Part shown: positions 1 to 51,608 of the stretch, piece by piece
Layout of the letters: the number at the start of each line of letters is the position of its first letter
Position numbering within the stretch: position 1 is the stretch's first letter
Source of the DNA: a virus
Direction: 5' to 3' (one strand)
IMG/VR virus record: IMGVR_UViG_3300032288_001980
Location: 64,001 to 128,000 of that record
Length of the DNA: 64,000 nt
Made by a program: the position numbers and the translations under genes
The notes under the pieces: model-generated
Seen by the model: only the letters and a program-made list of their open reading frames with translations
The model's database searches: none
Told to the model about the DNA's origin: nothing

Positions 1-1
1 C

Positions 2-667
2 TTTAGTTACGAACTAACACGAACTAAGGCATGTCGTCACATTGGCATTTATGTTAGTGTTGACAGTGTAGGAGCACAAGCAGAGTACATACGAAATGGT
101 ATGAACTACAATACTCTTATTGCCAATACCAAACGTGTGCTGTATGATACACACATGACTACCATTAACTTTATTAACACCTTTAACATTCTAAGCGTTC
201 CTGGATTACAAAAATATCTTGAAATGATTTTAGAAATGCGTAAGTATGTTAATAGTCTCAAGGACATTCCTGAAAAGAATCCCGAGTTTAATAACTACTG
301 GGATAGACAACGTGTATGGTTTGATATTCCTACACTACGCACACCCGTTTGGTTGACTATTCAAAATTTGCCCAGCAATATGTATAGCTTACTTGACCAA
401 GCAGTTAAGTATATGGAAGCAAATAGCACATCGCATCTTGGCGAACTTATTGGATTTGCCGACTTTGAAATAGACAAATTAAAACGCAATATTGATTGGA
501 TGAAAAGTTGTCAGTATACTGAAAACGAAAAACAGTTGTTGCGTAGAGATTTTTTTGCTTTTTTTAAAGAATACGATTACCGCAAAGGAACTAACTTTGC
601 TAAAACATTTCCAGAATTAAGTCTATACTGGAAACAATGTGAGAACAGTTACAATGCAAGAGCCTAA
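2..667 (+). CDS. Radical SAM protein, C-terminal part (truncated by window start)
   Basis: Frame is open from base 2 (FSYELTRTKACRHIGIYVSVDSVGAQAEYIRNGMNY). SVD...AEYIR.G and C-terminal YDYRKGTNFAKTFPEL match the neighbouring radical SAM paralogues. Confidence 0.75.
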   Translation, partial: FSYELTRTKACRHIGIYVSVDSVGAQAEYIRNGMNYNTLIANTKRVLYDTHMTTINFINTFNILSVPGLQKYLEMILEMRKYVNSLKDIPEKNPEFNNYWDRQRVWFDIPTLRTPVWLTIQNLPSNMYSLLDQAVKYMEANSTSHLGELIGFADFEIDKLKRNIDWMKSCQYTENEKQLLRRDFFAFFKEYDYRKGTNFAKTFPELSLYWKQCENSYNARA

Positions 668-2060
668 AAGCTATTACGACAAGCTACTAGAAACAAAAGA
701 AAAACTCAATGCCGTGGGCAAGGGCTTTTGCTTGATGAAGTGGCAAACAGAAACTTTATACCTGCACATGGGAGATAACCATAGTTGTTATCATCCGCGG
801 CCGCACAAAATTAGAATTGAAGATATCAAACGTAGTCCCAGCGGCTTACATAATACCGAATACAAAAAGCAACAACGTAAGCTAATGCTAGAGGGCGAGC
901 GTCCCAGCGAATGTTATTATTGCTGGAACATCGAAGACTTGGGCGGTGATCATATCAGTGACAGGTTTGTACACAGTACCAGCGACTATGCAATCGAAGA
1001 CTACGATACTATACGTAAACTAGATGCTGACGCTGATTGGAACCCTAGGCATATCGAAGTTAGTTTTGGTAATGCTTGCCAACTTAAATGCGGCTATTGC
1101 TGTCCACAGGCTAGTAGTGCTTGGATGGAAGAAATAAAACGCAAAGGCGACTATGACATTACTACCAAACAGTATAGCATTGATTTCTTAAAAGACGGAG
1201 TGTTCTATGAACCTGACATGGACAATCCTTACGTAGATGCTTGGTGGCAGTGGTGGCCAGAGCTAAAGAAAGACCTGCGTGTGTTTCGTATTACTGGTGG
1301 GGAGCCTTTACTTAACAGCAACACATTCAAACTGTTGGACATGTTAGATCAAGATCCTGCTCCTGAGCTACAGTTACATATAAACAGTAACCTAGGTATG
1401 AAGTCTAGCCTAGTAGAAAAACTCAGCGAAAGAGTTAGTAAGTTGTTAGCAGAAAAAAAGATAAAAGATTTTAGACTGTTCACTAGCATAGACGGCTGGG
1501 GCGAGCGTGCAGAGTATATGCGTAACGGTCTAGACTGTGAGTTATGGGAAAAGAACTTACGCATCTTTTTAGATACTGTCCCTAACAGTAAAATTAATTT
1601 GATGATTACATTCAATGTGCTTAGTGTAGTTAAATTTAGATATTTGTTAGATAAGATACTAAAACTTAGAGAAGAATACGGTACACTGGAAAATATGTAC
1701 ACACAGCGTATTGGCTTTGACACTCCTTATCTCAAAGAGCCGCCACACTGGATGATTAATATATTGCCTAAGAACTTTTTAGATTATATGTGGGATCATT
1801 TGCGACACATGAAATATAAAGAGAGAACAAAAGATTTTACTCACGGCTTTGACAAAGTAGAAATAGAAAAGTTCAAACGTGTAGTTGACTACATGGCAGA
1901 AAATCCAGTAAGTCCCAGCATACTGCGCCAGGGCCGCAGAGACTTTTATACGTTCTTTACCGAACACGATAAACGCAGAGGTACTAACTTATTAGCTACC
2001 TTCCCAGAATACACAGAATTTTTTAATATGTGTGAACAAGTATATAGGAATTGGAAATGA
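654..2060 (+). CDS. Radical SAM protein with N-terminal Cys-rich (SPASM/twitch-like) domain
   Basis: CxxxCxxC (CQLKCGYC), ITGGEPLL, N-terminal FCLMKW..HSCYHP..ECYYCW. Track start 639; ATG 654 chosen. Confidence 0.9.
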   Translation: MQEPKSYYDKLLETKEKLNAVGKGFCLMKWQTETLYLHMGDNHSCYHPRPHKIRIEDIKRSPSGLHNTEYKKQQRKLMLEGERPSECYYCWNIEDLGGDHISDRFVHSTSDYAIEDYDTIRKLDADADWNPRHIEVSFGNACQLKCGYCCPQASSAWMEEIKRKGDYDITTKQYSIDFLKDGVFYEPDMDNPYVDAWWQWWPELKKDLRVFRITGGEPLLNSNTFKLLDMLDQDPAPELQLHINSNLGMKSSLVEKLSERVSKLLAEKKIKDFRLFTSIDGWGERAEYMRNGLDCELWEKNLRIFLDTVPNSKINLMITFNVLSVVKFRYLLDKILKLREEYGTLENMYTQRIGFDTPYLKEPPHWMINILPKNFLDYMWDHLRHMKYKERTKDFTHGFDKVEIEKFKRVVDYMAENPVSPSILRQGRRDFYTFFTEHDKRRGTNLLATFPEYTEFFNMCEQVYRNWK

Positions 2061-3355
2061 GATTAATGAACTATGATGTGCCAGCCTTATATGGTCCTGG
2101 CGAAATAACAGGCATGCACTTAGAGCTCACTGACAAATGTAATGCTGGGTGTCCTATGTGCCCGCGTTACATTAACAACGGTGGTGAACTCAATCCCAAA
2201 GTCTTAGAAACAGAAATCACATTAGAACAGTTTAAAACTTGGTTCCCTCCAGAGTTTGTAAAACAATTAAAGCGTGTTTATGCTTGCGGCAATTACGGTG
2301 ATCCTATTGTTGCTAAAGATAGTTTAGAAATATTCAAGTACATGAGGGAACACAATCCCAACATGGCCTTAACACTACACACTAATGCCAGCGCACGTAC
2401 ACCTGCGTGGTGGACTGAATTAGGCAAGGTTGTTAACAATTTTGAACGCGGAGACTTTTGCGTGTTTAGCGTAGACGGTTTAGAAGATACTAATCACTTA
2501 TATCGTCGCAATACCAAGTTCAGCAAGATACTGGCTAACATGAAGGCCTTTAAGGCAGCAGGTGGAGTAGCTAAGTGGGACTTTATTGTTTTTAAACACA
2601 ATGAGCATCAAGTTGAAGAAGCCAGAGCATTGGCCAATGAACTGGGCTTTGAATTTTTTAACGTTAAGCGTACTACACGTTGGCACAAGTGGACAGACCA
2701 AGGTCGTGGTTATTACGAAGTACTAGATAAAGAAAAGCAAGTTTTGTATAAACTTGAACAGCCAGACAATGAAAACTTTAGAGATAGTAATTTCAAAGAA
2801 CTTAAGACAATTGGTATTGTTCCTATGTACATTACTAATCAAGAATTTGATCGAATGACACAGATTAGTTTGGAACATAGAGAATGGGACAATGAAAAGA
2901 ACCAATGGGTTAGCTTTAGACACAATGACATTGAAGTTAGTTGTAGAGCACAGCATCACGAAAAGGGCGGTAACAATCAAGTAAATGAAATATTTGTTAG
3001 TGCTAGTGGACATGTATTTCCCTGTTGTTTTATTGGTGGTGAACCATGGCGTCATATCAGTGATGATAGGCCATGGGAAGTTGCCAAGCAAGGCGCGGCA
3101 TTTAAAAATATAAGTGATGATGCTAGTATTCAAATGATAGAATTAGCAGGCGGCATGGACACATTAAGTCTGCACAAAAACACACTAAGCCAGGTACTTA
3201 AAGGTCAGTTCTTTGATAGATTCTTACCTAGAAGCCTTTACAAAGGACACAATATGCGTAGCAGACAATGCAGTACCTGTTGTGGAAAAGAATGGAACAA
3301 GCTAGACAACGGCGAGTTGGGCAATCAGCATCACAAAACACAGACCAATGGATGA
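2051..3355 (+). CDS. Radical SAM protein with C-terminal SPASM/twitch-like domain
   Basis: CNAGCPMC motif, GNYGDP, SVDG, C-terminal CRAQ..VFPCCF..QCSTCC. Confidence 0.9.
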   Translation: MEMRLMNYDVPALYGPGEITGMHLELTDKCNAGCPMCPRYINNGGELNPKVLETEITLEQFKTWFPPEFVKQLKRVYACGNYGDPIVAKDSLEIFKYMREHNPNMALTLHTNASARTPAWWTELGKVVNNFERGDFCVFSVDGLEDTNHLYRRNTKFSKILANMKAFKAAGGVAKWDFIVFKHNEHQVEEARALANELGFEFFNVKRTTRWHKWTDQGRGYYEVLDKEKQVLYKLEQPDNENFRDSNFKELKTIGIVPMYITNQEFDRMTQISLEHREWDNEKNQWVSFRHNDIEVSCRAQHHEKGGNNQVNEIFVSASGHVFPCCFIGGEPWRHISDDRPWEVAKQGAAFKNISDDASIQMIELAGGMDTLSLHKNTLSQVLKGQFFDRFLPRSLYKGHNMRSRQCSTCCGKEWNKLDNGELGNQHHKTQTNG

Positions 3356-4694
3356 CTTAGATAAACTACGTGCTGTTAAACAAAAGCTAGATTCTGTAGG
3401 GACTGGCTTTTGTTTATTAAAATGGACACAGCAAACATTGTATTTGCAAACAGGTGACAATCACAGTTGTTATCATCCATACCCACATAAAATTGATATT
3501 AAAGATATACAAAGAACACCCAGTGGACTACACAATACAGCCTATAAGAGTAAACAACGAGAAATGATGCTGAACAAGCAACGTCCACCAGAATGTAGTT
3601 TTTGTTGGAATGTAGAAGATTCGGGCCATGTCAGTGATAGGATTATTAACAGCGCCAATGATATGGTACAGTTTGAAACTATACGCAATCTTAAACCAAC
3701 CGATGATTACAATCCTAGCTTTATCGAAGTTAACTTTGGTAACGTTTGTAATTTTATGTGCGGATACTGTACTCCTACTGTTAGTAACAGTTGGATCAAT
3801 GATATCAAAGCCAATGGAAGATTTCCTGTTGTTAGCAAACAATATGACATAGACTTTATTAAAGATAGGGAATACTATGAAAGCGATGACGACAGTAACC
3901 CTTACGTACAGGCTTTTTGGCAATGGTGGCCCACTTTAATCAAAGACCTACAGACTCTACGTATTACGGGCGGCGAACCTATGCTGAATCAAAATACGTG
4001 GCAACTACTAGACAAGTTAGAATTAGAGCCAGCACCGCATCTTACATTGTTAATTAACAGTAACTTGGGAGTCAAGCCTGCACTAATAGAAAAACTCAGC
4101 GAACGTGTGCGAACACTATTAACCAAACGTGCTATTAAAGATTATCGTATGCATGTTAGTTTAGACACGTGGGGCAAGCCGGCCGAATACATCCGTTGGG
4201 GATTAAATTGTGCAGAGTGGGAACAAAATTTTAAAACTATAATGAACAACTTCAAGGACATAAATGCCAGTGTTGAAATTATGGTAACTTACAATAACTT
4301 AGTACTGCCTAGCTTTAATCAACTGTTGAAAAAAATATTAGAATGGCGACAAGTATACGGCCGCAGGGTTGAATTTATAACACCCCATCTTAAAGAGCCC
4401 GATCATTGGAGCATTAATATATTGCCTACTGAATTTGTCAAGTACATCGATGCTGATATTGCATTTATGAAACAGCATTTAAATACTGGATTCAGCGAAG
4501 TTGAGATTGAAAGGCTAGAACGAGTACGTACACATTTTGTAAAGAATAGTTTGAGTTTGGCTAGAGAGTTAACTGCCAAAGCAGACTTTTATAAGTTTTT
4601 TACTGAGCACGATCGTCGTAGAGGATCAAACTTTTTAGAAACATTTCCCGAATATCAAGACTTTTTATTAGAGTGCAAACAACATGTCAAGTAA
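3348..4694 (+). CDS. Radical SAM protein, paralogue of 654..2060
   Basis: CNFMCGYC, ITGGEPML, N-terminal GFCLLKWTQQTLYL..HSCYHP, C-terminal HDRRRGSNFLETFPEY. Confidence 0.9.
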   Translation: MDDLDKLRAVKQKLDSVGTGFCLLKWTQQTLYLQTGDNHSCYHPYPHKIDIKDIQRTPSGLHNTAYKSKQREMMLNKQRPPECSFCWNVEDSGHVSDRIINSANDMVQFETIRNLKPTDDYNPSFIEVNFGNVCNFMCGYCTPTVSNSWINDIKANGRFPVVSKQYDIDFIKDREYYESDDDSNPYVQAFWQWWPTLIKDLQTLRITGGEPMLNQNTWQLLDKLELEPAPHLTLLINSNLGVKPALIEKLSERVRTLLTKRAIKDYRMHVSLDTWGKPAEYIRWGLNCAEWEQNFKTIMNNFKDINASVEIMVTYNNLVLPSFNQLLKKILEWRQVYGRRVEFITPHLKEPDHWSINILPTEFVKYIDADIAFMKQHLNTGFSEVEIERLERVRTHFVKNSLSLARELTAKADFYKFFTEHDRRRGSNFLETFPEYQDFLLECKQHVK

Positions 4695-5898
4695 AACATT
4701 GTGCGTATTACCATGGAACACTTTGAGCATTGGACAAAGTGGGCATCAACGCCTATGTTGTAATGCTATTAATGGTGGCCTCAGCGGCGAAGGATGGCCC
4801 GGGCCTGTTACACAACGACTTGATTTAAATTGGCAACAAGGTGGCGCTATACAAAAAGTACGCGACATAATGACTGCTGGCCATAAGCCTGCACAATGCG
4901 AACGTTGTTGGAAGCTAGAAGACATTGGTGCTGAAAGTTATAGGCAAATTAACAATACCTACCGCTTTCCCAACAGTTATGCTCAACTGCAAGAAAACAA
5001 ATTGGAAGTAAAGTTAGAAAGACTAGAATTAGACTTTGGTAATAAGTGCAATCTTGCTTGCAGAATGTGTCATCCTTATAGCAGTAGTTTGTTAGCGCAG
5101 GAAATTGCCAAGGATCCTACAAATGCTTACACATCAGTTGACTTAGACTTTTTAGAAAAAACCAGCTGGGTCAAACACAGCAGACTTTTTGACGTTGTTA
5201 GACAACAAGGGCACGACCTTAAAAGCGTATACATCATTGGTGGCGAACCACTAATCATGGACGAACAAGAAGAGTTTCTTGATTTGTTAATAGAATTAGA
5301 CTTTGCCAAAAATATATCATTAGAGTATAACAGTAACATTACTACAATTGGTAGTAAGTGGTACGAAAAGTGGAGTCATTTTAAAGAAGTTAATCTAAAC
5401 GCTAGTATCGACGGAGTAGAAGGATATTACGAGTATGTTCGTTGGCCTGCCAAGTGGGATAAAATTTACAGTAACCTTAAAGAATTAAAATATTGGTCCA
5501 TGGATAGACCCAACAACAAAACTTGCATACACACCACACTAAGCAATTTAACAATACCCAGCATAAAACGAACTACAGATATCCTAGTAGGAGAATTGGA
5601 CTTCAACTTATTTGTTATTAATGTTGATCATCCTAGTTGTATGCGACCAGAGATATTACCAGGTTCTGACAAACTAAGACTAGCATTACAGGGTGTAGAA
5701 CATATTAATCAAAAGTATAGCAATCATTATGCATTGTCTAATACTGTAAAGACTTTGGAAAGAGTAGCTTATAGTCCTGATCCCAGTGAACAAGATAAAA
5801 AAGATTTTGTTAAACGTATGAAATTTATGGATCAACATAGACGACAAGATCTATTAGATTTGCATCCATGGTTTAAGGAATGGTACAATGTATATTAA
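4684..5898 (+). CDS. Radical SAM protein with N-terminal SPASM-like domain
   Basis: CNLACRMC, IIGGEPL, N-terminal LCVLPW..RLCCN..QCERCW. Confidence 0.9.
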   Translation: MSSKTLCVLPWNTLSIGQSGHQRLCCNAINGGLSGEGWPGPVTQRLDLNWQQGGAIQKVRDIMTAGHKPAQCERCWKLEDIGAESYRQINNTYRFPNSYAQLQENKLEVKLERLELDFGNKCNLACRMCHPYSSSLLAQEIAKDPTNAYTSVDLDFLEKTSWVKHSRLFDVVRQQGHDLKSVYIIGGEPLIMDEQEEFLDLLIELDFAKNISLEYNSNITTIGSKWYEKWSHFKEVNLNASIDGVEGYYEYVRWPAKWDKIYSNLKELKYWSMDRPNNKTCIHTTLSNLTIPSIKRTTDILVGELDFNLFVINVDHPSCMRPEILPGSDKLRLALQGVEHINQKYSNHYALSNTVKTLERVAYSPDPSEQDKKDFVKRMKFMDQHRRQDLLDLHPWFKEWYNVY

Positions 5899-7078
5899 TA
5901 AACAAACATTTTGTATTCATCCCCATGCGGCTATGAGCACCACACCGGATGGTTTTTACAAAACTTGTTGTATGAGCGAGTTGCCTATACGCAAAGACGA
6001 TGGAACCCCATACAGGCCTAGTCAAGATAGTCTACAAGAAGCGTTCAATAGTCCATGGATGGACAACCTGCGTCGAGATTTAAATATAGGATTTAAAAAT
6101 CCCAACTGCAAAAGATGTTGGGATGAAGAACGTGCTGGCCAAAACAGCAAACGTATGAGAGACAGCAAAGAATATCTAAACGGTTCTAAAAATATACGTG
6201 CAGGTGAACATGTTATTAAAATTGTTGACTTGAAGATGGGCAATCTATGTAATTTAAAATGTCGTATCTGTAATCCATGGAACAGCAGTCAGTGGGTTGA
6301 CGAATGGCACAGTTTACGTAAGCCCAACGAAAGCAAAATAGAATTTCATAAGCCTTTTAAGGCCATGCGTGATGCTTGGAATCCAGATCAAAACATTTGG
6401 AAAAATCTAGAACAAGCATTACCAAATATTGAACACATGGATATGTACGGCGGCGAGCCACTATTAATCGAAAACATGTGGACTATTTTAAAACACAGCG
6501 TTGAAAAAGGTTACAGTAAAAAGCAAACTATTCATTATAATACCAACGGTAGTATTATGCCCAGTGATGAACAATTTGCACTTTGGAAAGAATTTAAATT
6601 ATTAGACATACAAGTTAGTGTAGACGACATTGGTGATAGGCATCACTATCAACGCTACCCCAGTGATTGGTCTAAAGTAAGAAACCATGTGTTAAAATTT
6701 AAAGAGCACGACTGGATTAGACTTAGCACTAACGCTACTATAAGTAATTACAATATTTTCTACTTAGACGAGATCACAGAAGAAATAGTAAAAAATATTG
6801 GCACTAGTGTGTGGTACAATATATTACATGCACCATACGACCAAAGTATAGCGGCATTAGATCCCGAGATTAAGAAAATTTTAGTAAAGAAACTGTCGCC
6901 TATTCAAGAGTATCAACCTGAAATTATTCCTATACTTAATTTTATAGCCAGCAGTCCAGACCCAGAGAAGATGCGTTTGTTTATGAAACGCAATGAAGAA
7001 CAAGATGAATATCGTAAACAGAGCTTTAGGGACACATTCCCCGAGTGGTGGGAAATCCTTAGATCCCACTATCAATAA
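5888..7078 (+). CDS. Radical SAM protein with N-terminal SPASM-like domain
   Basis: CNLKCRIC, MYGGEPLL, N-terminal FCIHP..KTCCM..NCKRCW. Confidence 0.9.
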   Translation: MYINKQTFCIHPHAAMSTTPDGFYKTCCMSELPIRKDDGTPYRPSQDSLQEAFNSPWMDNLRRDLNIGFKNPNCKRCWDEERAGQNSKRMRDSKEYLNGSKNIRAGEHVIKIVDLKMGNLCNLKCRICNPWNSSQWVDEWHSLRKPNESKIEFHKPFKAMRDAWNPDQNIWKNLEQALPNIEHMDMYGGEPLLIENMWTILKHSVEKGYSKKQTIHYNTNGSIMPSDEQFALWKEFKLLDIQVSVDDIGDRHHYQRYPSDWSKVRNHVLKFKEHDWIRLSTNATISNYNIFYLDEITEEIVKNIGTSVWYNILHAPYDQSIAALDPEIKKILVKKLSPIQEYQPEIIPILNFIASSPDPEKMRLFMKRNEEQDEYRKQSFRDTFPEWWEILRSHYQ

Positions 7079-8183
7079 AAGTATCTGTACCTTACCATGG
7101 GTGCATCTACACGCATGGCCAGATGGCAAGGCATTTCCCTGCTGTCTTAGTGATCCAACTAAACCGGTAGGTAATTTAAATCAAACTAAGATTATTGATA
7201 TTGTAAATGGCGATGCTTACCGACAAATAAAAAGAAAGATGCTGGCCGGCGAGCCTGTTGACACTTGCTATAAATGTTACGAACAAGAAGCGGTGGGCAT
7301 GACCAGTATGCGTGTTAATAGTTTTAAATATCACCCCACAGACTTTAGTGATTTTAAACTTAAATACCTTGACATTAGATTTAGTAATGTTTGCAATTTA
7401 GCTTGCGTTAGTTGCGGACCTACTTTTAGCAGTAAATGGCATAATGATTGGATTAAATTAGGCCGCAGTAGCGGACATGCACGTATAGTAAGTTTAGATA
7501 TTATGGAACAACTCAAGACAGATTATTTAGATGATGTAGAAAATGTTACTTTTGCAGGCGGAGAACCTTTGGTAACTAACCAACACTATGAGATACTAGA
7601 ATATTTCATAGAAAAGAAAAAACAAGTTAACATTTCATATATTACAAACTTAACTAACTTAGACTATCAAAAAAGAAATGTCTTGGATTTATGGAAAAAG
7701 TTCGATAGAATTAGTATGCTGGTTAGTATAGACAATGTATGGGATAGGTTTGATTATATTCGCTGGGGCGCCAGCTGGAAACAAATACTAGAAAACCTAA
7801 GCAGAGTTAGAACAGAATGTCCTCATATTGATATTAAGATTACCCCAAGTATTAGTATTTTAAATATTTTAGACTTAGATAAGTTAGAAAGAGCTATTCA
7901 TACATTTACAGGCATTCACAGCTATCAGTACAATGTAATCAGCTATCCTGAAAATTTAAAAGCAGAATTGTTGCCACAAGCACATAAGGCTGAAGTTGCT
8001 CGCATGACTGATCATCACAGGGACTGGTTAGCTGAACATAATTTAACTTCGGAAATGCCGGACTTAGTAGACAATTTAATGAAAAATCATTCTAGTGGTA
8101 TAGAATCTACCAGGGCATATTTACAGGATTTAGACCGCATTAGAGGCACCAATAGTCAGCAGTTGTTCCCATATATTTGGTAA
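6993..8183 (+). CDS. Radical SAM protein with N-terminal SPASM-like domain (start uncertain)
   Basis: CNLACVSC, FAGGEPL, N-terminal ICTLPW..FPCCL..TCYKCY. Overlaps the upstream gene, so the true start may be a later codon. Confidence 0.88.
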   Translation: MKNKMNIVNRALGTHSPSGGKSLDPTINKSICTLPWVHLHAWPDGKAFPCCLSDPTKPVGNLNQTKIIDIVNGDAYRQIKRKMLAGEPVDTCYKCYEQEAVGMTSMRVNSFKYHPTDFSDFKLKYLDIRFSNVCNLACVSCGPTFSSKWHNDWIKLGRSSGHARIVSLDIMEQLKTDYLDDVENVTFAGGEPLVTNQHYEILEYFIEKKKQVNISYITNLTNLDYQKRNVLDLWKKFDRISMLVSIDNVWDRFDYIRWGASWKQILENLSRVRTECPHIDIKITPSISILNILDLDKLERAIHTFTGIHSYQYNVISYPENLKAELLPQAHKAEVARMTDHHRDWLAEHNLTSEMPDLVDNLMKNHSSGIESTRAYLQDLDRIRGTNSQQLFPYIW

Positions 8184-8186
8184 ATA
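8181..8186 (+). promoter_or_regulatory. Candidate T4-like late promoter core (TAAATA) upstream of lysozyme
   Basis: GGTAAATA about 23 nt before the ATG, followed by a CAGGAG RBS. The same core recurs before structural genes on the - strand. Confidence 0.45.
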
Positions 8187-8208
8187 TACGAGTTACAGGA
8201 GCACACAT

Positions 8209-8745
8209 ATGGCTAGAACAATAGGACAAAATGGTATGGACTTGATCAAGCATTTCGAAGGATGCTATGCGTCAAACCCAGGATCTGCCGCACTAGGTAG
8301 AATTAAACCAAAACCAGTTACCAACTTAATGAACACGGATCAAATGGTTTACAGTTATCGCTGTAGCGCCAACGTTCCTACAATTGGTTGGGGCAATACA
8401 CGTTGGGCAGACGATACTCCAGTTCAAGACGGCGATGAATGTACATTGGCCGAAGCTAACGAACTATTTGAAACTGAAGTAGACGAGTTTGCACATAATG
8501 TCGATAAATTAGTCACTAATCCGCATGTTACCCAAAACATGTTTGATGCATTGGTAAGTTTTGCTTACAATGCAGGTGTGGGTAACTTACGTGCCAGTAC
8601 ATTACTTAAAACAGTAAATGCTGGAAACTTTGCAGGTTGCAGAGAACAATTCATGCGTTGGAACAAAGCAGGCGGCAAAGAGCTTCCAGGTTTAACTCGT
8701 CGCAGAGTCGCAGAAGCCGATTTATTTGAAACACCGGATGCTTAA
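8209..8745 (+). CDS. Phage lysozyme/endolysin (GH24-like)
   Basis: IKHFEGC catalytic Glu, PTIGWG, QNMFDALVSFAYNAG, RWNKAGGKELPGLTRRRVAE; RBS CAGGAG. Confidence 0.92.
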   Translation: MARTIGQNGMDLIKHFEGCYASNPGSAALGRIKPKPVTNLMNTDQMVYSYRCSANVPTIGWGNTRWADDTPVQDGDECTLAEANELFETEVDEFAHNVDKLVTNPHVTQNMFDALVSFAYNAGVGNLRASTLLKTVNAGNFAGCREQFMRWNKAGGKELPGLTRRRVAEADLFETPDA

Positions 8746-8746
8746 T

Positions 8747-8794
8747 ATGCAAGAAGAATGTCCAATCTGCGGTGGCAAACACCCAAAGAAATAA
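8747..8794 (+). CDS. Candidate 15-aa micro-ORF MQEECPICGGKHPKK
   Basis: ATG 1 nt after the lysozyme stop (TAA-T-ATG); CxxC-GG-x-H pattern; below the ORF-track length cutoff. Confidence 0.35.
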   Translation: MQEECPICGGKHPKK

Positions 8795-8814
8795 ACCAAT
8801 ATCTAAGATGTGAC

Positions 8815-8844
8815 TTGACTGGCATAGGGCAACTAAATTATAAT
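8815..8844 (+). promoter_or_regulatory. Sigma70-type promoter for the DNA polymerase operon
   Basis: TTGACT (8815-8820), 18 nt, TATAAT (8839-8844); TAGGAGG RBS before 8873. Confidence 0.6.
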
Positions 8845-8872
8845 GTGAAACATTAATTTTTTAGGAGGCGCT

Positions 8873-9133
8873 ATGCCAGGACGTTCATTCAATTCAGAAG
8901 ATATTGCAAAACTCAAAAAACTATTCAACGAGGGTATGCGTGTAATGCGCGAAATGGAAGACCTTCGCGAAGGACTTAAAGACACGGTTAAATCTATCGC
9001 CGAAGAGCTAGATATGAAACCCGCTGTGTTGACCAAAGCACTTAAAATTGCACACAAAAACGCTCTCAAAGACGAACAAGAAGCTTTTAGCGAAGTTGAA
9101 GAAGTTCTTGAAGCATCCGGATATACCCTTTGA
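8873..9133 (+). CDS. Small helical dsDNA-binding protein (T4 DsbA/GapR-like)
   Basis: 86 aa, charged helical pattern EDLREGLKDTVKSIAEELDMKPAVLTKALKIAHK; strong RBS; position upstream of the polymerase. Confidence 0.55.
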   Translation: MPGRSFNSEDIAKLKKLFNEGMRVMREMEDLREGLKDTVKSIAEELDMKPAVLTKALKIAHKNALKDEQEAFSEVEEVLEASGYTL

Positions 9134-9432
9134 TTACCAAAATAAAATCTTTGTTCACTCCCACATGGGAGTGGATAAAGCAAGACTATCACGAGTGGCC
9201 TTTTCGATTTTTCATCGAAGTGTTAGCTTGGGCAATTAGCATCGGCAATAGTATTGCAATGATGTTGACAGTACCTAATCCTCCGCTTATAATATTATAT
9301 CCCATATGGATATTTGGTTGTTCACTATATGCGTGGGCCGCTTTTACTCGAGGTAGTTTTGGTATGCTGGCCAATTATGTGCTTCTTACAACTATTGATA
9401 CTATCGGTTTAATTAGGATGATTATTCAATGA
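9130..9432 (+). CDS. Small membrane protein (about 3 TM segments)
   Basis: Three hydrophobic stretches; overlaps both neighbours by 4 nt. Confidence 0.6.
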   Translation: MITKIKSLFTPTWEWIKQDYHEWPFRFFIEVLAWAISIGNSIAMMLTVPNPPLIILYPIWIFGCSLYAWAAFTRGSFGMLANYVLLTTIDTIGLIRMIIQ

Positions 9433-12071
9433 GCTACGTAGATGCTTTCTACAATAAACAAAAAGACTTAGTACAAATTGTCGAACGTATTAACGGGCAA
9501 AGAAAATTCAGAGACGTTCCAGTCAAGTATGTGTTTTATTACAAAGATGCCAAGGGCAAATATAAAAGCATATATGGCGAGTCTTTAAGTAAAGTTGCTG
9601 TTAACAATCACAAGTCGTTTGAAAAAGAAAAACGAATTTACAATAATAAAAGATTGTATGAAAGTGATATCAAGCCAGTGTTTCGTTGTTTAGAGGAAGA
9701 ATATCCTAACGGCGACACACCAGAACTAAACGTTTGTTTCTTTGACATTGAAGTTAACTTTGACAAAGAGCGCGGCTTTGCTGACCCCAGTGATCCGTTT
9801 AATAACATCACTAGTATAACTTTGTACCTTGGTTGGCTAGATAAGTTAATTACATTGTGTTTAAAACCTAATACCTTAACTAGAGACCAAGCCGCAGATA
9901 TTTGCAACAAGTTTGAAAATACTGTTCTTTGTAATACCGAAGAAGAAATGTTAGATATGTTTATTCATCTCGTAGATGATGCAGACATTCTCAGCGGATG
10001 GAACAGCGAAGGTTTTGATATTCCTTATACTCTTAATCGTATTGCTAGAGTAATGGGCCAAGATCATTGCAAACGTTTTTGTTTGTGGGATCAAAAGCCT
10101 AAAGCACGTGAGTTTGAAAAGTATGGTAAAACTGCTGTTACCTATGACTTAATTGGTCGTGTACACCTTGACTATCTTGAACTGTATCGCAAATATACCT
10201 ATCACGAACTTCATACATACCGACTTGACTATGTAGGAGAATATGAACTAGGTGAAACTAAGGTTCACTATGAAGGTACTTTGGATCAGTTATACAACAA
10301 TGACTTTGAAAAGTTTATTGCGTATAACAGACAAGACGTTATGTTGTTAGTCAAGTTGGATAAGAAACTACAGTACATTGACTTAGTAAACGTTTTAGCA
10401 CACGCCAATGGAGTATTATTCCAAACTACAATGGGTGCTGTAGCTGTTACAGATCAGGCTGTTATTAAAGAAGCGCATAACAGAGGACTAATTGTTCCTG
10501 ACCGCACAAGAGAACACGCCGAAACACAGGCTGCTGGTGCTTACGTTGCATATCCTAAAAAAGGTATACACGAATGGATTGGAAGCATGGACTTAAACAG
10601 TCTGTATCCTTCCGTGATCCGGGCCCTTAATATGAGTCCAGAAACTATCGTGGGACAACTGCGTATGGATATGACCAAAGCAATGATTCGCGATGGTATG
10701 GCGGCCGGTAAGAGCTTTGCTGACTGCTGGGACGGAAGATTTGCTACTATGGAATACGAAGTAGTAATGAATCAAGACATTGGCACTGATGTTATTATTG
10801 ATTGGGAAAACGGGCGTAGTGAACAAGTAAGCGGGAAACAGGCTTATGAAATGATTTTCTTAAGCGGACAAAATCTTATTCTTAGCGCCAATGGCACAAT
10901 ATTTAATTACACAGAAAAGGGTGTTATTCCAGGTTTGCTAGAACGCTGGTATGCTGAACGTAAAGAACTGCAAAAGAAAGCTAAGTCGGCAACAGATCCC
11001 AAAGAGTTTGAGTTTTGGGACAAGCGACAGCTAGTTAAGAAGATTAACTTGAACTCTGCTTATGGTGCGTTGTTGAACGCAGGCAGCAGGTTCTTTGATC
11101 AACGCCTGGGTCAAAGTACAACCTTAACTGGTCGCTGTATTGCTAGGCATATGGCGGCGCAGGTTAATGCTATGTTTACTGGCGAGTACAATCACGTAGG
11201 TGATACCATTATCTATGGTGACACGGACTCCGTATACTTTAGTGCGTGGCCTGTTTTCAAAGGCGAAGCCAATCGAGGAGAATTGGATTGGAGTAAAGAA
11301 AAAATTGTAGAACTCTACGATACTGTTAGCGCCGAAGTCAACGATACCTTTCCTGCATTTATGAACAAAGCCTTTAATGTACCTAGTTTGTACGCGGCAC
11401 CAATTAAAGCAGGTCGTGAAGTTGTTGCTAGTAAAGGAATTTATATTACTAAAAAACGTTATGCTGTTCTTATCTATGACAAGGAAGGCAAACGTAAAGA
11501 CATCGATGGAGAAGAAGGCGAAATCAAAGCCATGGGATTGGATCTTAAGCGAGCCGATACTCCAGAGTACATGCAAAAGTTCTTAGAAGAAATTTTACTA
11601 ATGTTGTTAGTTGGCGATGAAAAACAAAAAATTCTAGATAAGATTATTGAATTTAGAAAAGAATTCAAAGCCAAACCAGCATGGGAAAAAGGTACGCCCA
11701 AACGTGTAAACAATTTGACTCAACATACAGCAGTATTCAATAAGACAGGCAAATGCGGTATTGGACATGCATTGGCTGCTATTAATTGGAATAGAATTAA
11801 AAAGATGCACAATGACCAATTCAGTATGGATGCTGTTGACGGCATGAAAGTTATTGTGTGTAAATTGAAAAGTAATCCATTAGGAATGACTAGCATTGCT
11901 TATCCTACAGATGAGCAACGTTTGCCATTATGGTTTAAAGAATTGCCTTTTGATGAAGAAGCAATGGAAGAAGCCATTATTGATAATAAGATTGACAACC
12001 TCCTAGGCGTGTTAGGATGGGACTTACAGTCAACTAAAATGAAGAATACGTTCAACTTATTGTTTGAATAA
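9429..12071 (+). CDS. Family B DNA polymerase (T4 gp43-like)
   Basis: Exonuclease motifs FFDIE, GWNSEGFDIPY, YNRQD; polymerase motifs SMDLNSLYPS, KKINLNSAYG, YGDTDS, KKRY; 880 aa with no insertion. Confidence 0.97.
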   Translation: MSYVDAFYNKQKDLVQIVERINGQRKFRDVPVKYVFYYKDAKGKYKSIYGESLSKVAVNNHKSFEKEKRIYNNKRLYESDIKPVFRCLEEEYPNGDTPELNVCFFDIEVNFDKERGFADPSDPFNNITSITLYLGWLDKLITLCLKPNTLTRDQAADICNKFENTVLCNTEEEMLDMFIHLVDDADILSGWNSEGFDIPYTLNRIARVMGQDHCKRFCLWDQKPKAREFEKYGKTAVTYDLIGRVHLDYLELYRKYTYHELHTYRLDYVGEYELGETKVHYEGTLDQLYNNDFEKFIAYNRQDVMLLVKLDKKLQYIDLVNVLAHANGVLFQTTMGAVAVTDQAVIKEAHNRGLIVPDRTREHAETQAAGAYVAYPKKGIHEWIGSMDLNSLYPSVIRALNMSPETIVGQLRMDMTKAMIRDGMAAGKSFADCWDGRFATMEYEVVMNQDIGTDVIIDWENGRSEQVSGKQAYEMIFLSGQNLILSANGTIFNYTEKGVIPGLLERWYAERKELQKKAKSATDPKEFEFWDKRQLVKKINLNSAYGALLNAGSRFFDQRLGQSTTLTGRCIARHMAAQVNAMFTGEYNHVGDTIIYGDTDSVYFSAWPVFKGEANRGELDWSKEKIVELYDTVSAEVNDTFPAFMNKAFNVPSLYAAPIKAGREVVASKGIYITKKRYAVLIYDKEGKRKDIDGEEGEIKAMGLDLKRADTPEYMQKFLEEILLMLLVGDEKQKILDKIIEFRKEFKAKPAWEKGTPKRVNNLTQHTAVFNKTGKCGIGHALAAINWNRIKKMHNDQFSMDAVDGMKVIVCKLKSNPLGMTSIAYPTDEQRLPLWFKELPFDEEAMEEAIIDNKIDNLLGVLGWDLQSTKMKNTFNLLFE

Positions 12072-12074
12072 TTC

Positions 12075-12103
12075 TTGACACGACCTAAATAAACCTATAT
12101 ACT
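12075..12103 (+). promoter_or_regulatory. Sigma70-type promoter
   Basis: TTGACA, 17 nt, TATACT; AAGGAG RBS before 12124. Confidence 0.75.
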
Positions 12104-22068: not shown

Positions 22069-22452
22069 ATGGAAATCAATGATACTGTCGATCTCGCCGC
22101 CGATATTAAAAATTGTGCATGGATAGTGGAAAAAGTTCGCACTAACAAAACCTATGCACAAAATCTTTATGCGGCCTTGTGTAATATAATTTGGTTTAAG
22201 ACCAATGACTTTTGGCCGGCACTAACTGGTAACAATGAATGGAGTTGCAGTTGGCGATGGGCAGGAGGTTTTGTTGCTGAATTGGAGGATCAAGGCGGTG
22301 ATTACATGGATTGGTATTGCAGTGGTATCCGTGGTGACAAAGATGAAAATAAAGAGTTATACGTTGGTGAAGGTTATGTAACCAACGAAGTAGCAGATGA
22401 TTTAGCTAAAATTGGATGGAAATGGAAAGAATATGAAGATCAAGGTATCTGA
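22069..22452 (+). CDS. Hypothetical protein
   Basis: 127 aa, Trp-rich (WSCSWRWAGG, DYMDWYCSG). Confidence 0.7.
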   Translation: MEINDTVDLAADIKNCAWIVEKVRTNKTYAQNLYAALCNIIWFKTNDFWPALTGNNEWSCSWRWAGGFVAELEDQGGDYMDWYCSGIRGDKDENKELYVGEGYVTNEVADDLAKIGWKWKEYEDQGI

Positions 22453-23305
22453 GAAATTTTACAGTTTACAAGGCGAAGGAAGGTTTGTAGGAGTACCCAG
22501 TGTATTTTTACGAACCTTTGGTTGTAATTTTACCTGTGCAGGCTTTGGCTGTAAGCCTGGAGAAAAAAGTACAGGTGCAGACGAAATAGCACAAGTTGTT
22601 CATATGTACAACAAGTTCGAAGATTTGCCATTGGTAGAAACAGGCTGTGACAGTTATGCTAGTTGGCATCCGGACTTTAAGCACTTGAGCCCTAATTATG
22701 AAACTAGTGAGCTAGTTGATGCAATGCTGGCACTGACACCAAACGGTAAATGGGTGCAGGACAATGGCAATGATGTGCATCTTGTTATTACAGGCGGAGA
22801 GCCTTTGCTGGGTTGGCAACGTGCTTACGAAGAACTAATCAGTAATCCTCGTATGCGTGACTTACGCAATATTACATTTGAAACTAATGGTACTCAAAAA
22901 TTACAAAAAGGATTTAAAGACTTTTTGCAAGCATGGCAACAACCAGCACTAGGACAATCACAGACACAGTTTGTGACTTTTAGTGTTAGTGCCAAACTAA
23001 GTGCCAGCGGCGAGACATGGGAAGATGCTATTAGGCCTGAAGTAGTATGCGAATACGCCAGCATTGGTCATACTTATCTTAAGTTTGTTGTTGAAACAGA
23101 TGAGCATATCGAAGAAGCTAAACGTGCTACAAAAGAATTTAGGGATGCAGGATTTACAGGAGTAGTATATCTAATGCCGCAGGGAGGCATTGTTGCTCCG
23201 TATGACGCAAATAAAATTAGAATTGCTAATATCTGTGCGGAACAAGGATGGAACTACAGTCCCCGTTTACACGTTGACTTATGGGGTAACGGATGGGGCA
23301 AATGA
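22433..23305 (+). CDS. queE: 7-carboxy-7-deazaguanine synthase (radical SAM)
   Basis: EKFYSLQGEG, VFLRTFGCNFTC, GCDS, VITGGEP, FETNG, SPRLHVDLW. Confidence 0.88.
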   Translation: MKIKVSEKFYSLQGEGRFVGVPSVFLRTFGCNFTCAGFGCKPGEKSTGADEIAQVVHMYNKFEDLPLVETGCDSYASWHPDFKHLSPNYETSELVDAMLALTPNGKWVQDNGNDVHLVITGGEPLLGWQRAYEELISNPRMRDLRNITFETNGTQKLQKGFKDFLQAWQQPALGQSQTQFVTFSVSAKLSASGETWEDAIRPEVVCEYASIGHTYLKFVVETDEHIEEAKRATKEFRDAGFTGVVYLMPQGGIVAPYDANKIRIANICAEQGWNYSPRLHVDLWGNGWGK

Positions 23306-43070: not shown

Positions 43071-43838
43071 ATGAAAACTACTGGACACAGCATAAAACTA
43101 TTTTGGCCTGTACATATTGCAGCCTTGCTGGGCGCTATTGCCATGGCATTATGGGGTAATTTAAATTACCTTTGGTTCTGGCCTGTCGGCTGGATATTAA
43201 TTAGCGGACTAGGCAGTGCTATTGGTCTGCACAGAGTACTAAGCCACAAATGTTTGCCGGAAACAAGTAAGTTTACCAAAAGAGTTCTAACATTGCTGGG
43301 CTGTATGGCCGGGCAAGGAAGTCCTATTTTCTGGGTAGCACTACACAGGGGCTATCATCACAGTCACGCCGACACACCTCGAGATATACACAGTCCTATA
43401 CACGGTTTATTTCATTCTTACCTAAGTTGGAGTTGGAAGATTACTCCCACTGATGTTAACTTGAAATATGCTGTGGATCTATTACGTGACAAATTTCAAG
43501 TATGGGTACATACCAACTATTATAAACTAGTATGGAGTGTAATCATTGTTACAGCATTAATCAATTGGCAGTTAGCCGTTTGTTTAATTTTGTTGCCTAT
43601 GATTACAGGTATTCATCAAGAAGCTTGCATCAACATGTTCTGTCATTTAAAGAACGTTGGTTATAGGAATCACGAAATCAACGACAACAGCCATAATGTA
43701 CCTGTATTGGGTTATTTTGCTTGGGGTCAGGGTTGGCACAACAACCATCACAAACATCCTGGTAATTATAATTTTGGAGAAAAGTGGTGGGAATTTGACC
43801 CTTGTATGATTTTTTATCCTATACTCAAAAGAATTTAA
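43071..43838 (+). CDS. Membrane fatty-acid desaturase (delta-9-like)
   Basis: Three His boxes HRVLSH, HRGYHH, HNNHH; TM segments; WEFDP. Confidence 0.92.
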   Translation: MKTTGHSIKLFWPVHIAALLGAIAMALWGNLNYLWFWPVGWILISGLGSAIGLHRVLSHKCLPETSKFTKRVLTLLGCMAGQGSPIFWVALHRGYHHSHADTPRDIHSPIHGLFHSYLSWSWKITPTDVNLKYAVDLLRDKFQVWVHTNYYKLVWSVIIVTALINWQLAVCLILLPMITGIHQEACINMFCHLKNVGYRNHEINDNSHNVPVLGYFAWGQGWHNNHHKHPGNYNFGEKWWEFDPCMIFYPILKRI

Positions 43839-45385
43839 TGACTGTCGATATTTTAATTTTTACTGAATTTACCAGCACGACCGTATTTCAACGCCTAATA
43901 GGTGCGTATCGTATTGCCACGGAGTTGCGTAAAAATGGCTATACGGTACAGGTAGTAGATTACTTAACTGAATGGACACCCGAAGAGCTTAATCAAATTG
44001 TAGATAAATTTGTAGGTTCCAATACATTATTTGTTGGCTTTAGTAGCACTCTTTATGCTATACGAGATCAAGCACTCAGCGATAACAGTAGACCTAACCA
44101 TTATCGTAGAGAATTAAGATATACAGAAGATTTTCCATTTAGACCCGAAGTCAGTTACGCATTTATTAAACACATTAAAGAAGTCAATCCTAATACTAAA
44201 ATTGTTTTAGGTGGCCAGCGCAGTCAATACAAAAACAGTAAATTAGTAGACTGTTTTATTCACGGCTATGCGGACCACACTACTGTAGAATATGCACATT
44301 ATTTGTCGGGCAAGCCTTATGATCAATCTGTGTTAAAGATGATTCCTATCAATGATCATCAAATAGAAATAGATTGGATCAAAGATCCTGAGTGGAACTT
44401 TCAAACTAGCCAAGTACTATGGCAAGACAATGACTTAATTTACGACAATGAAGTGTTGCCCATTGAAATTAGTAGGGGTTGTATCTTTAGATGTGATTTT
44501 TGTAGCTTTCCTATGAATGGCAAAGACAAGTTTGATTATATCAAAGACAGTACACCACTTAAAGAAGAATTTATACGCAACTATGAAAAGTGGGGAATAA
44601 CGAATTATATCTTTGCTGACGACACTTACAACGACAGTATCTACAAAGTAGAAAAACTTTACAACGAAGTATTTTCGCAACTACCATTTAAAATACAATT
44701 CAGTGCATATTTGCGACACGACTTAATTCACGCTAATCGAGATATGGCGCCGCTACTAAAAGAAAGCGGACTTAAGACTTGTGTGTTTGGTTTAGAAAGT
44801 CTAAATCATAAAAGTGCATTAGCTATTGGCAAAGGCCTGCACCCAGAGAAAAGCAAAGAATTATTGCACTGGTTACGTGACGAAGCATGGGGTAAAGATA
44901 TTACAATGAGCAGTGGCTTTATTGTAGGCTTGCCACACGAAACAGAAGAAACATTTCGTGAATGGATGGAATGGGTCGAAGATGAAAACTGTCCATTGGA
45001 TGGATATACTGTTGAGCCGCTGGGCTTTAACATTAACGAAAAGAAAATTTGGCCCAGCAAGTTTGAAGCTAATCCGGAAGCCTATGGTTACAACATTATC
45101 AACAAAGGTGTTGCTAACAATAGTTTTTTCCGTTGGAGTATGTGGAGCAATCCTCATATGACGCTACCTAAAGCGTGGGCAATTGCCGATGAATATATTA
45201 TGCGAGGGTACCGAAGTGGGCGGATCAAGCCAGCTGGCTTCTTCCAGTTCATGTGGATGAATGGCACTGGTTTAACCGCCGACGATTTAGCAGGAATGAG
45301 CGTTAAAAATGTCAGTGCAGATTTTTTAAAAGACAAAAAAACTGAATGGTTTAAACTTTACAAACAAAGACTTTTTAATTTATAA
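43838..45385 (+). CDS. B12-binding-type radical SAM protein
   Basis: N-terminal GAYRIATELR..G..VQVVD, VLGG, EISRGCIFRCDFC, FADDT, FGLES, GFIVGLPHE. Confidence 0.85.
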   Translation: MTVDILIFTEFTSTTVFQRLIGAYRIATELRKNGYTVQVVDYLTEWTPEELNQIVDKFVGSNTLFVGFSSTLYAIRDQALSDNSRPNHYRRELRYTEDFPFRPEVSYAFIKHIKEVNPNTKIVLGGQRSQYKNSKLVDCFIHGYADHTTVEYAHYLSGKPYDQSVLKMIPINDHQIEIDWIKDPEWNFQTSQVLWQDNDLIYDNEVLPIEISRGCIFRCDFCSFPMNGKDKFDYIKDSTPLKEEFIRNYEKWGITNYIFADDTYNDSIYKVEKLYNEVFSQLPFKIQFSAYLRHDLIHANRDMAPLLKESGLKTCVFGLESLNHKSALAIGKGLHPEKSKELLHWLRDEAWGKDITMSSGFIVGLPHETEETFREWMEWVEDENCPLDGYTVEPLGFNINEKKIWPSKFEANPEAYGYNIINKGVANNSFFRWSMWSNPHMTLPKAWAIADEYIMRGYRSGRIKPAGFFQFMWMNGTGLTADDLAGMSVKNVSADFLKDKKTEWFKLYKQRLFNL

Positions 45386-50938: not shown

Positions 50939-51608
50939 ATAACCACTCGAAATCATTAACTCGTTTAAGTGCTTCTAGATTGTTTTTATTTTCGGTGCCG
51001 TACTGTTTTCCAGCAACAGCACCAGAGATCGCTTCTTTGGCATAATTGCCTTCGGCGATAGTACACCATGTATCTAAACGTTGTTTAGTAATGTCATCAT
51101 CACTAATTATACCACTGGCCAGTTTAGTACACTCTCTGAACGCACTACGCCATGTACTAAAAGGATCAGTGTTGAATTGCGTTATGTTGCTTATTTGTTC
51201 TTTGCTGACAAACTCTGCCCCCATACTAGTAGCAAGATCAACACGCCATTCTTTAATGTTTAATAATAAATCTTTTCGAAACAGTTTTACGCCGCCATAT
51301 CCATACACTAGATTGTTTACAGGATTTTTACTAGTCCAACAAAATACACAATCAGTTGACGGTATTCTTCCGTAGATTAATTCGGATACAGTTGGACTGT
51401 AGTCAAAGTAAAAATCATCAACTATATAAGCATCTGCATCTACAACATAAAAATGACTAGTCATGCTTTTTCTTGCGGCAGCTTGATGTGCTTCTAATAT
51501 TCCTTTGACCCCCGATACTCTTTTTGCATGAGGAGCATACTCTAATAATCTCGAGTAGTTTGCTTCTGCATTAGGTTCGTTATAACTTAAAAATATAACA
51601 TCAAGCAC
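50904..51608 (-). CDS. GT-A glycosyltransferase-like protein
   Basis: DVIFLSYNEP, YVVDAD, YGYGGVKLF, WRSAFRE; GTG start. Confidence 0.75.
   Translation of the reverse strand: MLDVIFLSYNEPNAEANYSRLLEYAPHAKRVSGVKGILEAHQAAARKSMTSHFYVVDADAYIVDDFYFDYSPTVSELIYGRIPSTDCVFCWTSKNPVNNLVYGYGGVKLFRKDLLLNIKEWRVDLATSMGAEFVSKEQISNITQFNTDPFSTWRSAFRECTKLASGIISDDDITKQRLDTWCTIAEGNYAKEAISGAVAGKQYGTENKNNLEALKRVNDFEWLYDRFRQHYTNK

Follow-up and report, generated by a model that had tools for sequence, protein, structure and literature searches.

A tandem array of NF033640-type radical SAM genes in a phage genome fragment and its association with glycosyltransferases

Introduction

Many SPASM and twitch radical S-adenosylmethionine (SAM) enzymes modify proteins or peptides. 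BtrN is a 2-deoxy-scyllo-inosamine dehydrogenase and BlsE is a cytosylglucuronate decarboxylase that acts on a glucuronyl nucleoside; both pair a radical SAM core with a single auxiliary-cluster twitch domain, and both have substrates of the carbohydrate type. Here, we describe a locus of an uncultured jumbo phage in which most genes have the same two kinds of domain: an array of seven radical SAM genes at the start of a 64,000-nucleotide stretch of DNA (referred to below as the window), which is bases 64001–128000 of the 183,898 bp IMG/VR record IMGVR_UViG_3300032288_001980 (CheckV completeness 52%). The array lies on the + strand at window positions −975 to 8183. Six of its genes, and a distant paralogue at 51601–53013 on the − strand, match NCBIfam NF033640 (N_Twi_rSAM), a catalogued family of N-terminal twitch radical SAM proteins of unassigned function. 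The family-B DNA polymerase (PolB) shares 44–50% identity with those of Phosso, Atu_ph07 and RaK2, all jumbo phages, and cultured phages gave no megablast match to window positions 1–12100.

That large phages can carry many radical SAM genes is already known. In pelagimyophages, radical SAM cassettes are found inside a host recognition cluster rich in GT8 and UDP-glucose dehydrogenase genes, and for this glycosyltransferase-rich (GT-rich) cluster the authors favour modification of the host O-chain (PMC7029224). The Campylobacter phages CP220 and CPt10 have 11–12 radical SAM genes (PMC2853527); neither paper names a family, a motif or a function for these genes. The present locus resembles those of these large lytic phages in its number of radical SAM genes, although the pelagimyophage genes vary as cassettes among GT8, UDP-glucose dehydrogenase and tail-fibre genes, whereas the array described here stands apart from such genes and beside replication genes. 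A tblastn search with one array protein returned no Campylobacter phage at E ≤ 1e-5, and literature searches on NF033640/N_Twi_rSAM and on polysaccharide-directed twitch enzymes turned up nothing of relevance.

Family membership and domain architecture

The array is a single operon of six NF033640 paralogues and one gene of the rSAM/SPASM type. Neighbouring open reading frames (ORFs) overlap by 8–86 nt, in agreement with the tandem arrangement described in a first-pass annotation of the window, and promoter-like and terminator-like sites within the array are not in excess of those in shuffled sequence. The array genes A1 (639–2060), A3 (3348–4694), A4 (4684–5898), A5 (5888–7078) and A6 (6993–8183) and the distant paralogue D (51601–53013, − strand) score 290–338 bits against NF033640, for which the cut-off is 170 bits, and the matches run from model positions 1–3 to 393–398 of 398. 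As six genes score in this range on one family model, the similarity across the array reflects homology and not chance. The first gene, A0, crosses the edge of the window: its start is at −975 (G000:C1:63025), positions 2–667 are its 3′ part, and NF033640 matches it in a single frame with scores of 210 and 91 bits (297 bits summed for the split gene). By profile match, the six array genes and D are full-length members of NF033640, with nothing in their sequences to set them apart from the rest of the family.

Two subtypes can be told apart among the members. The long one (450–550 residues, with an HSCxHP motif) comprises A0, A1, A3 and D. A0 encodes 547 residues and has its C-terminal motif at 572–616; its cluster motif, CNFKCAYC, sits upstream of the window. 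A1 (312.6 bits, model positions 2–398 of 398) has CxxxCxxC at 1077–1100 and the C-terminal motif at 1965–2009, and A3 (299.5 bits) has them at 3747–3770 and 4608–4652. D scores 330.4 bits and has its C-terminal motif at 51637–51681. A0 (L007:1501–3054) also has an insertion of ∼50 residues after the ‘NTN’ region that is found in none of the other six copies and is kept in the 547-residue orthologues of two relatives.

The short subtype (∼400 residues) comprises A4, A5 and A6. A4 is the most divergent copy (290.4 bits, model positions 1–398), with CxxxCxxC at 5047–5070 and a degenerate C-terminal motif at 5827–5871. In A5 (315.4 bits) the two elements are at 6248–6271 and 7001–7045, and in A6 (338.4 bits) they are at 7392–7415 and 8130–8174. 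The 5′ end of A6 (ATG at 6993 or 7005) shares DNA with the last 74–86 nt of A5 in a different frame, such that 6993–7078 codes both for the C-terminal motif of A5 and for a 27-residue N-terminal extension of A6; a later start codon in the A6 frame, ahead of the twitch domain, was not found.

The remaining array gene, 2051–3355 (+ strand), is of the rSAM/SPASM type. It has a Pfam Radical_SAM match of 32.5 bits over residues 25–191 and a cysteine-rich, SPASM-like C-terminus without the family motif; at 51.7 bits against NF033640 it falls below the cut-off and is a non-member. All seven array genes, and D as well, have CxxxCxxC together with the SAM-binding motif GGE; this bears out the earlier statement that CxxxCxxC is intact in the six complete genes of the array and extends it to the upstream part of the first.

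Pfam recognizes only a generic Radical_SAM domain, from about residue 120 onwards. In A6, a SPASM match (40 bits, residues 32–96) precedes the Radical_SAM match (residues 129–275), and this is the order of the family as a whole: NF033640 has an N-terminal four-cysteine twitch (half-SPASM) domain, then the barrel with CxxxCxxC and GGE, and finally a helical C-terminus that carries the signature. In an alignment of 74 sequences, numbered according to 7074–8183, the twitch cysteines C5, C24, C65 and C68 are invariant or nearly so, and C107/C111/C114, G162-G163-E164, N192 and R230 are invariant. Judging from these cysteines, the twitch domain should bind an auxiliary [4Fe–4S] cluster.

The first-pass annotation had counted ten radical SAM genes in the window. 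Nine ORFs have CxxxCxxC in a radical SAM context, namely the seven of the array, the B12-type gene 43802–45385 and D; the tenth, the QueE-like 22412–23305, has only a sub-threshold Pfam radical SAM score (19.3 bits, E 0.0014). Outside the array, two genes, 43802–45385 in the window and G000:C1:48488–50512 upstream of it, combine a Radical_SAM match of 55–60 bits with a B12-binding domain. With the QueE-like gene included, the genome fragment has at least 11 radical SAM genes.

The C-terminal motif

The motif at the ends of the array proteins had been read as a shared tail serving as a substrate-recognition or assembly element. The observation behind that reading is correct: the quoted strings were found letter for letter, six in the array and one in D (− strand), and all fall into a single register in the alignment. 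The reading itself is not supported by comparison with the family, as the motif is the conserved C-terminus of the whole of NF033640, in bacteria as much as in phages. It has the form D-x-x-R-x3-F-x3-F-P-E. Across 135 members, drawn from contigs of Bdellovibrionota and other metagenome-assembled genomes (MAGs) and from phage loci, the motif columns are occupied by D in 124, R/K in 133, F in 109, F/Y in 117, P in 126 and E in 100. D354, R357 and P366 are among the 27 most conserved of the 369 positions in the 74-sequence alignment.

For searching, we defined a pattern from the alignment, D-x2-[RK]-x3-hydrophobic-x3-aromatic-P within the last 60 residues. It matches 108 of 135 and 97 of 125 family members and 77 of the 102 top database representatives (∼75–80%), and only 3 of 660 and 4 of 1014 neighbouring proteins (0.4%). 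In two other radical SAM families of the same loci it was not found (0 of 23 and 0 of 14).

NF033640 matches run to the last positions of the model, and the motif is thus part of the family model. In an AlphaFold2 model of 7074–8183 it forms two short helices with pLDDT values of 95–98, which argues against a free docking element. We conclude that the motif is built into the enzyme as a structural or active-site element common to the whole family. It did not evolve as a tail in this phage, nor is it the generic end of a SPASM protein. The possibility that it might be a commonplace of SPASM proteins is therefore borne out within NF033640 but not beyond it: ordinary SPASM proteins lack the motif, including the one encoded in the array. 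The main result of this work is in this respect deflationary, the ‘shared tail’ being a family signature.

Structural comparisons

The AlphaFold2 model of 7074–8183 has an overall pLDDT of 94 and a pTM of 0.90. Its best structural matches, by Foldseek and VIA-align, are twitch and SPASM enzymes, and these matches cover only the core (residues 83–342). BlsE is the top match, with a Z-score of 13.4 and an r.m.s.d. of 3.2 over 215 residues; peptide maturases and MoaA follow within about one Z unit, again over the core only. Searched against PDB sequences, the family profile finds only remote radical SAM matches, the best being PDB entry 8vpo (TigE; E 3.4e-7), and among solved chains BtrN and BlsE have E values of 0.03–0.07.

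Assignment of the array genes to the BtrN/BlsE type was considered and rejected. The twitch domain follows the barrel in BtrN and BlsE but precedes it here, the identity is 15–19%, and the superposition leaves out both the N-terminal domain and the C-terminal motif of the array model. The enzymes may nevertheless work in a similar way. By fold, the array proteins belong to the same branch of the superfamily as the SPASM/twitch peptide maturases anSME, CteB, SkfB, SuiB and PqqE (Z-scores of 12–13), from which they differ in their partners and in their profile scores, as described below.

Glycosyltransferase context

Gene neighbourhoods were compared over 161 loci: 80 viral loci and 81 others (77 genome contigs, mostly MAGs of Bdellovibrionota, and four metagenome contigs). 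At least one GT family is present in 59 of the 80 viral loci, and a sugar gene of any kind in 65. The recurrent viral neighbours are a fusion of GT7 with a ConA-like lectin (LamG), GT8, NAD-dependent epimerase/dehydratase, UDP-glucose dehydrogenase and a protein family that we refer to as c3. In the other loci the commonest neighbour is a TarS/TarP-like GT-A protein (32 of 81; E 6.5e-6), and GT4 and Wzm/Wzt-type ABC-2 exporters recur. On related phage contigs the radical SAM gene stands beside RmlC-like, epimerase, methyltransferase and split transketolase-like genes.

Some of these partners are joined to the radical SAM unit in one polypeptide. Fusions were found of a GT with a twitch protein (P0218), of a twitch protein with GT2 (P0249) and of c3 with a twitch protein (P0146; hhalign E 9e-50). 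Through these GT and c3 fusions, NF033640 is tied to glycosyltransferases within single proteins.

The c3 family occurs in 33 of the 80 viral loci. In the window it is represented by a short GT-A-like copy at 50904–51608 and by 53006–54010, both on the − strand; the model of the latter (AlphaFold2, pLDDT 88) has an N-terminal domain with a GT-A/nucleotide-diphospho-sugar transferase fold and, after it, a helical domain. Residues 7–163 of the c3 model match B4GALNT1, a Leptospira glycosyltransferase, STIV A197, SunS and SpsA with VIA-align Z-scores of 8–9.9, and the top Foldseek matches, although weak, are all GT-A enzymes. D70 and D72, which have D-x-D spacing, are nearly invariant. There is no Pfam match to c3, and the c3 family profile found nothing significant among PDB sequences. 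A pair of GT8 (glycogenin-like) genes lies at 54971–55783 and 55776–56660 on the − strand; the family profile matches glycogenin in the PDB (E 2.4e-9), and the family is present in 25 of the 80 viral loci. The c3 pair and the GT8 pair flank D, which thus sits in a glycosyltransferase cassette adjoining tail-fibre genes. Among the latter, 58107–59159 (− strand) encodes a fibre-like protein with a weak match to a Peptidase_G2 intramolecular-chaperone domain (E 1.9e-5); its family and that of 57056–58105 recur in 21 of the 80 twitch-carrying viral loci.

Homologues of the rSAM/SPASM gene 2051–3355 are found in the glycan cassettes of 13 of the 80 viral loci. In two of the loci, L146 and L150, twitch genes are joined in one contiguous cassette by a 2051-like rSAM/SPASM gene and by the GT families found at window 48–57 kb, and from this comparison the array at 1–8 kb looks like a displaced part of a GT/twitch cassette. 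In the lineage of the present phage, array and GT cassette are stably apart.

The first-pass annotation had left the substrate of the array among three classes: a virion glycan, a structural protein and a peptide. Because of the GT neighbours and the GT fusions, a glycan is the best-supported class. Action on a protein or peptide would take the form of RiPP-like (ribosomally made, post-translationally modified peptide) maturation or cross-linking of a virion protein, for example a tail fibre or the Gly-Gly-Tyr repeat protein 57056–58105. D is near the fibre-like genes, including the Peptidase_G2-like 58107–59159; a (GGY)12 protein is nearby, according to the earlier annotation only; and CteB, SkfB, anSME and SuiB are among the closest structures. 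However, the RiPP maturase equivalogs (PqqE, anSME, sactisynthases, PapB and YhhB) give best scores of 15–30 bits against cut-offs of 300–855, and no precursor peptide was found in small ORFs or intergenic DNA in or beside the arrays of loci L083, L085 and L030 or upstream of the window, nor does any precursor-like ORF recur. No RRE-like (RiPP recognition element) domain was detected, in an analysis that used no dedicated RRE model. The recurrent partners and the fusion partners are GTs rather than peptidases or precursors, and the bacterial members keep company with polysaccharide exporters. We therefore consider a protein or peptide substrate unlikely.

Family distribution and phylogeny

Searching 1.84 billion cluster representatives (50% identity clusters) with the family profile gave 8,362 proteins at E ≤ 1e-30. 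With the 51601 protein as the query, a word-indexed search yielded over 6,900 homologues (E ≤ 1e-10), many of them ∼50% identical and on large phage-like contigs. Across 14 model genomes, no protein scored above the NF033640 cut-off. With one genome taken per species, Bdellovibrionota provide most of the closest relatives of the long subtype, among them proteins on megabase contigs and on a complete 1.89 Mb chromosome; the family is found in 31 of 151 sampled Bdellovibrionota genomes.

Tandem arrays, a usual arrangement for this family, are also present in these bacteria, with seven genes in L083, eight in L085 and eight in L088. They share the subfamilies of the phage array, but they are cellular and are often beside Wzm/Wzt-type exporters and GT4/GT-A genes. 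Copies above the cut-off number 16 in a 1.9 Mb Bdellovibrionales genome and 19 in a 4.5 Mb genome, ∼14 of the latter within 30 kb; expansions are located at C1:792–803 kb and 1068–1092 kb of the L083 genome (G001) and at C1:745–775 kb of the L088 genome (G002). Within ±10 kb, the 80 viral loci have one copy in 49 cases, two in 24, three in five, four in one and five in one. The present array (six members, plus one copy elsewhere) belongs at the upper end of the viral sample and is modest beside the bacterial arrays.

The window paralogues are 19–39% identical, except for one pair (639–2060 and 3348–4694) at 52%. On a FastTree tree of 94 members, six label changes are needed for the seven window copies, which are not monophyletic, and only A1 and A3 are sisters. 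A0 clusters with sequences from Bdellovibrionota arrays, A5 with L085:6245–7459 from a Bacteriovoracaceae array and D with the main viral clade; A4 is on a long branch and its placement is unsure. Judged on identity and tree position, the window paralogues are old and distinct subfamilies, and the description of the array as a diversified battery, as opposed to a set of recent copies, holds.

Several unusual family members were noted in the course of these searches. Some polypeptides among P0121–P0145 contain the complete N-twitch radical SAM unit two or three times; P0121 (1203 residues) has three matched stretches, and P0144 fuses an N-twitch radical SAM unit to a partial subtilase-like region. 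Vibrio phage K566 (L176, OZ196521.1:161548–168284), a cultured KVP40-like phage, has four distant members that score 117–160 bits with our own family profile, and Vibrio phage K567 is like it in this. They are clustered and interleaved with unannotated genes, and one of them retains a C-terminal F-x-x-L-P-E; K566 is a possible laboratory model. The K566 proteins gave no match to the c3, GT-A or GT8 profiles.

Conservation in close relatives

The array is whole and intact, and in the same position, in four relatives with PolB ∼91% identical. In these relatives it is flanked on one side by a ferritin/desaturase-like block and on the other by lysozyme and polymerase genes. The A0 orthologues in L173 and L175 have 547 residues and 91–92% identity; tblastn finds A1 intact in both and A5 intact in L173, and 2051–3355 is 95–96% identical in relatives. 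The nonsynonymous divergence (dN) is 0.03–0.06 for A1, the SPASM gene, lysozyme and PolB and 0.10–0.14 for A3–A6, whose rate of divergence is thus two to three times higher; for the right half of the array (3348–8183), the explanation may be an exchange with a more distant relative or simply faster evolution. The synonymous divergence (dS) is saturated, to the point that NG86 dS is not computable for A3–A6, and the case for selection is accordingly an upper-bound argument. With intact genes, low dN and saturated dS, all copies are under purifying selection.

These data bear on the idea that the copies are redundant or decaying duplicates without distinct roles. The high copy number and the faster divergence of A3–A6 relative to neighbouring genes are what this idea would lead one to expect, but the cluster and SAM motifs are intact in all copies, the array is preserved in four relatives, dN/dS is far below 1, and the copies are in separate, old clades that are shared with bacteria. 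Decay is largely refuted by the conservation in relatives and is very improbable as an account of the array.

The position of the array suggests, in this one genome only, a role in hypermodification of phage DNA or its nucleotide precursors, tied to the downstream replication and 7-deazaguanine region. The array is directly upstream of lysozyme and DNA polymerase B, which the first-pass annotation has followed by a TGT/QueD/QueE/FolE block and sugar-activating enzymes, and the QueE-like 22412–23305 is itself a weak radical SAM match. In other phages, however, the same subfamilies are in tail-fibre/GT cassettes, and in bacteria they are beside polysaccharide exporters; no DNA-modification partner recurs in the 161 loci, and the structural matches lack a DNA-binding element. 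Of the substrates considered here, DNA is the least plausible.

A ferritin-like gene (G000:C1:60320–60760, L010:16320–16760; Pfam Ferritin E 1e-25) is found ∼3.2 kb upstream of the window and is retained by relatives, with 87% identity in L175. Also upstream are an AurF-like di-iron oxygenase (L010:7495–8595) and an FA_desaturase-like gene (L010:17846–18604). The ferritin-like gene may supply iron to the many Fe–S and di-iron enzymes.

With the B12-type radical SAM genes upstream and at 43802–45385, the same genes could be taken to point to a small-molecule or lipid product (a metabolite resembling a natural product, a cofactor or a membrane lipid) that is made or edited with the scattered desaturase-like, AurF-like, B12 radical SAM and 2-oxoglutarate oxygenase genes. 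A fusion of an N-twitch radical SAM unit to GNAT (P0234) also fits this idea, as does a cluster at 38–48 kb that resembles a biosynthetic gene cluster according to the earlier annotation only. Against it, no cofactor equivalog is matched: MoaA (TIGR02666) scores 19–33 bits against a cut-off of 284, PqqE-type, NirJ and AhbD scores are likewise far under their cut-offs, and neither MoaC nor another molybdopterin partner is among the annotated neighbours. No scaffold-forming enzyme was found, and the constant partners across the 161 loci are GTs and nucleotide-sugar enzymes. A small-molecule or lipid product is, in our estimate, improbable.

Discussion

Three aspects of this work are new: the motif as the signature of a family, the c3–twitch and GT–twitch fusions, and an array that is stably apart from the GT cassette. 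From the gene context and the fusions, we think it rather likely that the array enzymes, as old subfamilies each working on a different sugar or position, edit a glycan built by the glycosyltransferases of the phage itself.

Several points weigh against glycan editing. All of the functional evidence is association. NF033640 has no member of known substrate and no close solved structure. Nucleotidyltransferases of the same fold match c3 with Z-scores of 7–8.8, such that a glycosyltransferase is not separable from them on this basis. The array here is 43 kb from the GTs, between the ferritin/desaturase-like block and the lysozyme/DNA polymerase genes, and the bacterial array L083 has housekeeping genes in its upstream flank.

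If the array edits a glycan, established radical SAM chemistry would have SAM cleaved reductively and the resulting 5′-deoxyadenosyl radical take a hydrogen from a sugar carbon. By analogy with BtrN and BlsE, the twitch cluster would serve as an electron acceptor or as a substrate anchor. The product could arise by oxidation, epimerization, dehydration, decarboxylation or C–C bond formation. From the gene context, the substrate would be the glycan or a nucleoside-diphosphate-linked or lipid-linked precursor, with the old subfamilies differing in sugar or position, and the builders of the glycan would be the c3 GT-A-like and GT8 proteins of the phage. The product would probably decorate the virion or remodel the host surface polysaccharide. 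More speculatively, the Asp/Arg-Arg of the motif might help in closing the active site, or in binding an anionic portion of the substrate.

A broader proposal, which we put forward tentatively and regard as doubtful in its full extent, is that NF033640 is a large unrecognized class of glycan-tailoring radical enzymes, coupled physically or by pathway to GTs, with the GT and c3 fusions as the evidence for coupling. Arrays would then put several radical modifications (epimerized, oxidized, decarboxylated and C–C-linked sugars) on one phage-directed glycan, with the Asp/Arg-Arg of the C-terminal helix binding a diphosphate or a uronate, and the resulting hypermodified coat on the virion or the infected cell would govern host recognition or superinfection exclusion.

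For a family of 8,362 clusters that is absent from the model genomes sampled, the arrays and the GT fusions provide a concrete and testable hypothesis of substrate class. If the enzymes do edit sugars, this would be new radical carbohydrate chemistry, and it would account for the costly set of genes that recurs where large aquatic phages encode host recognition.

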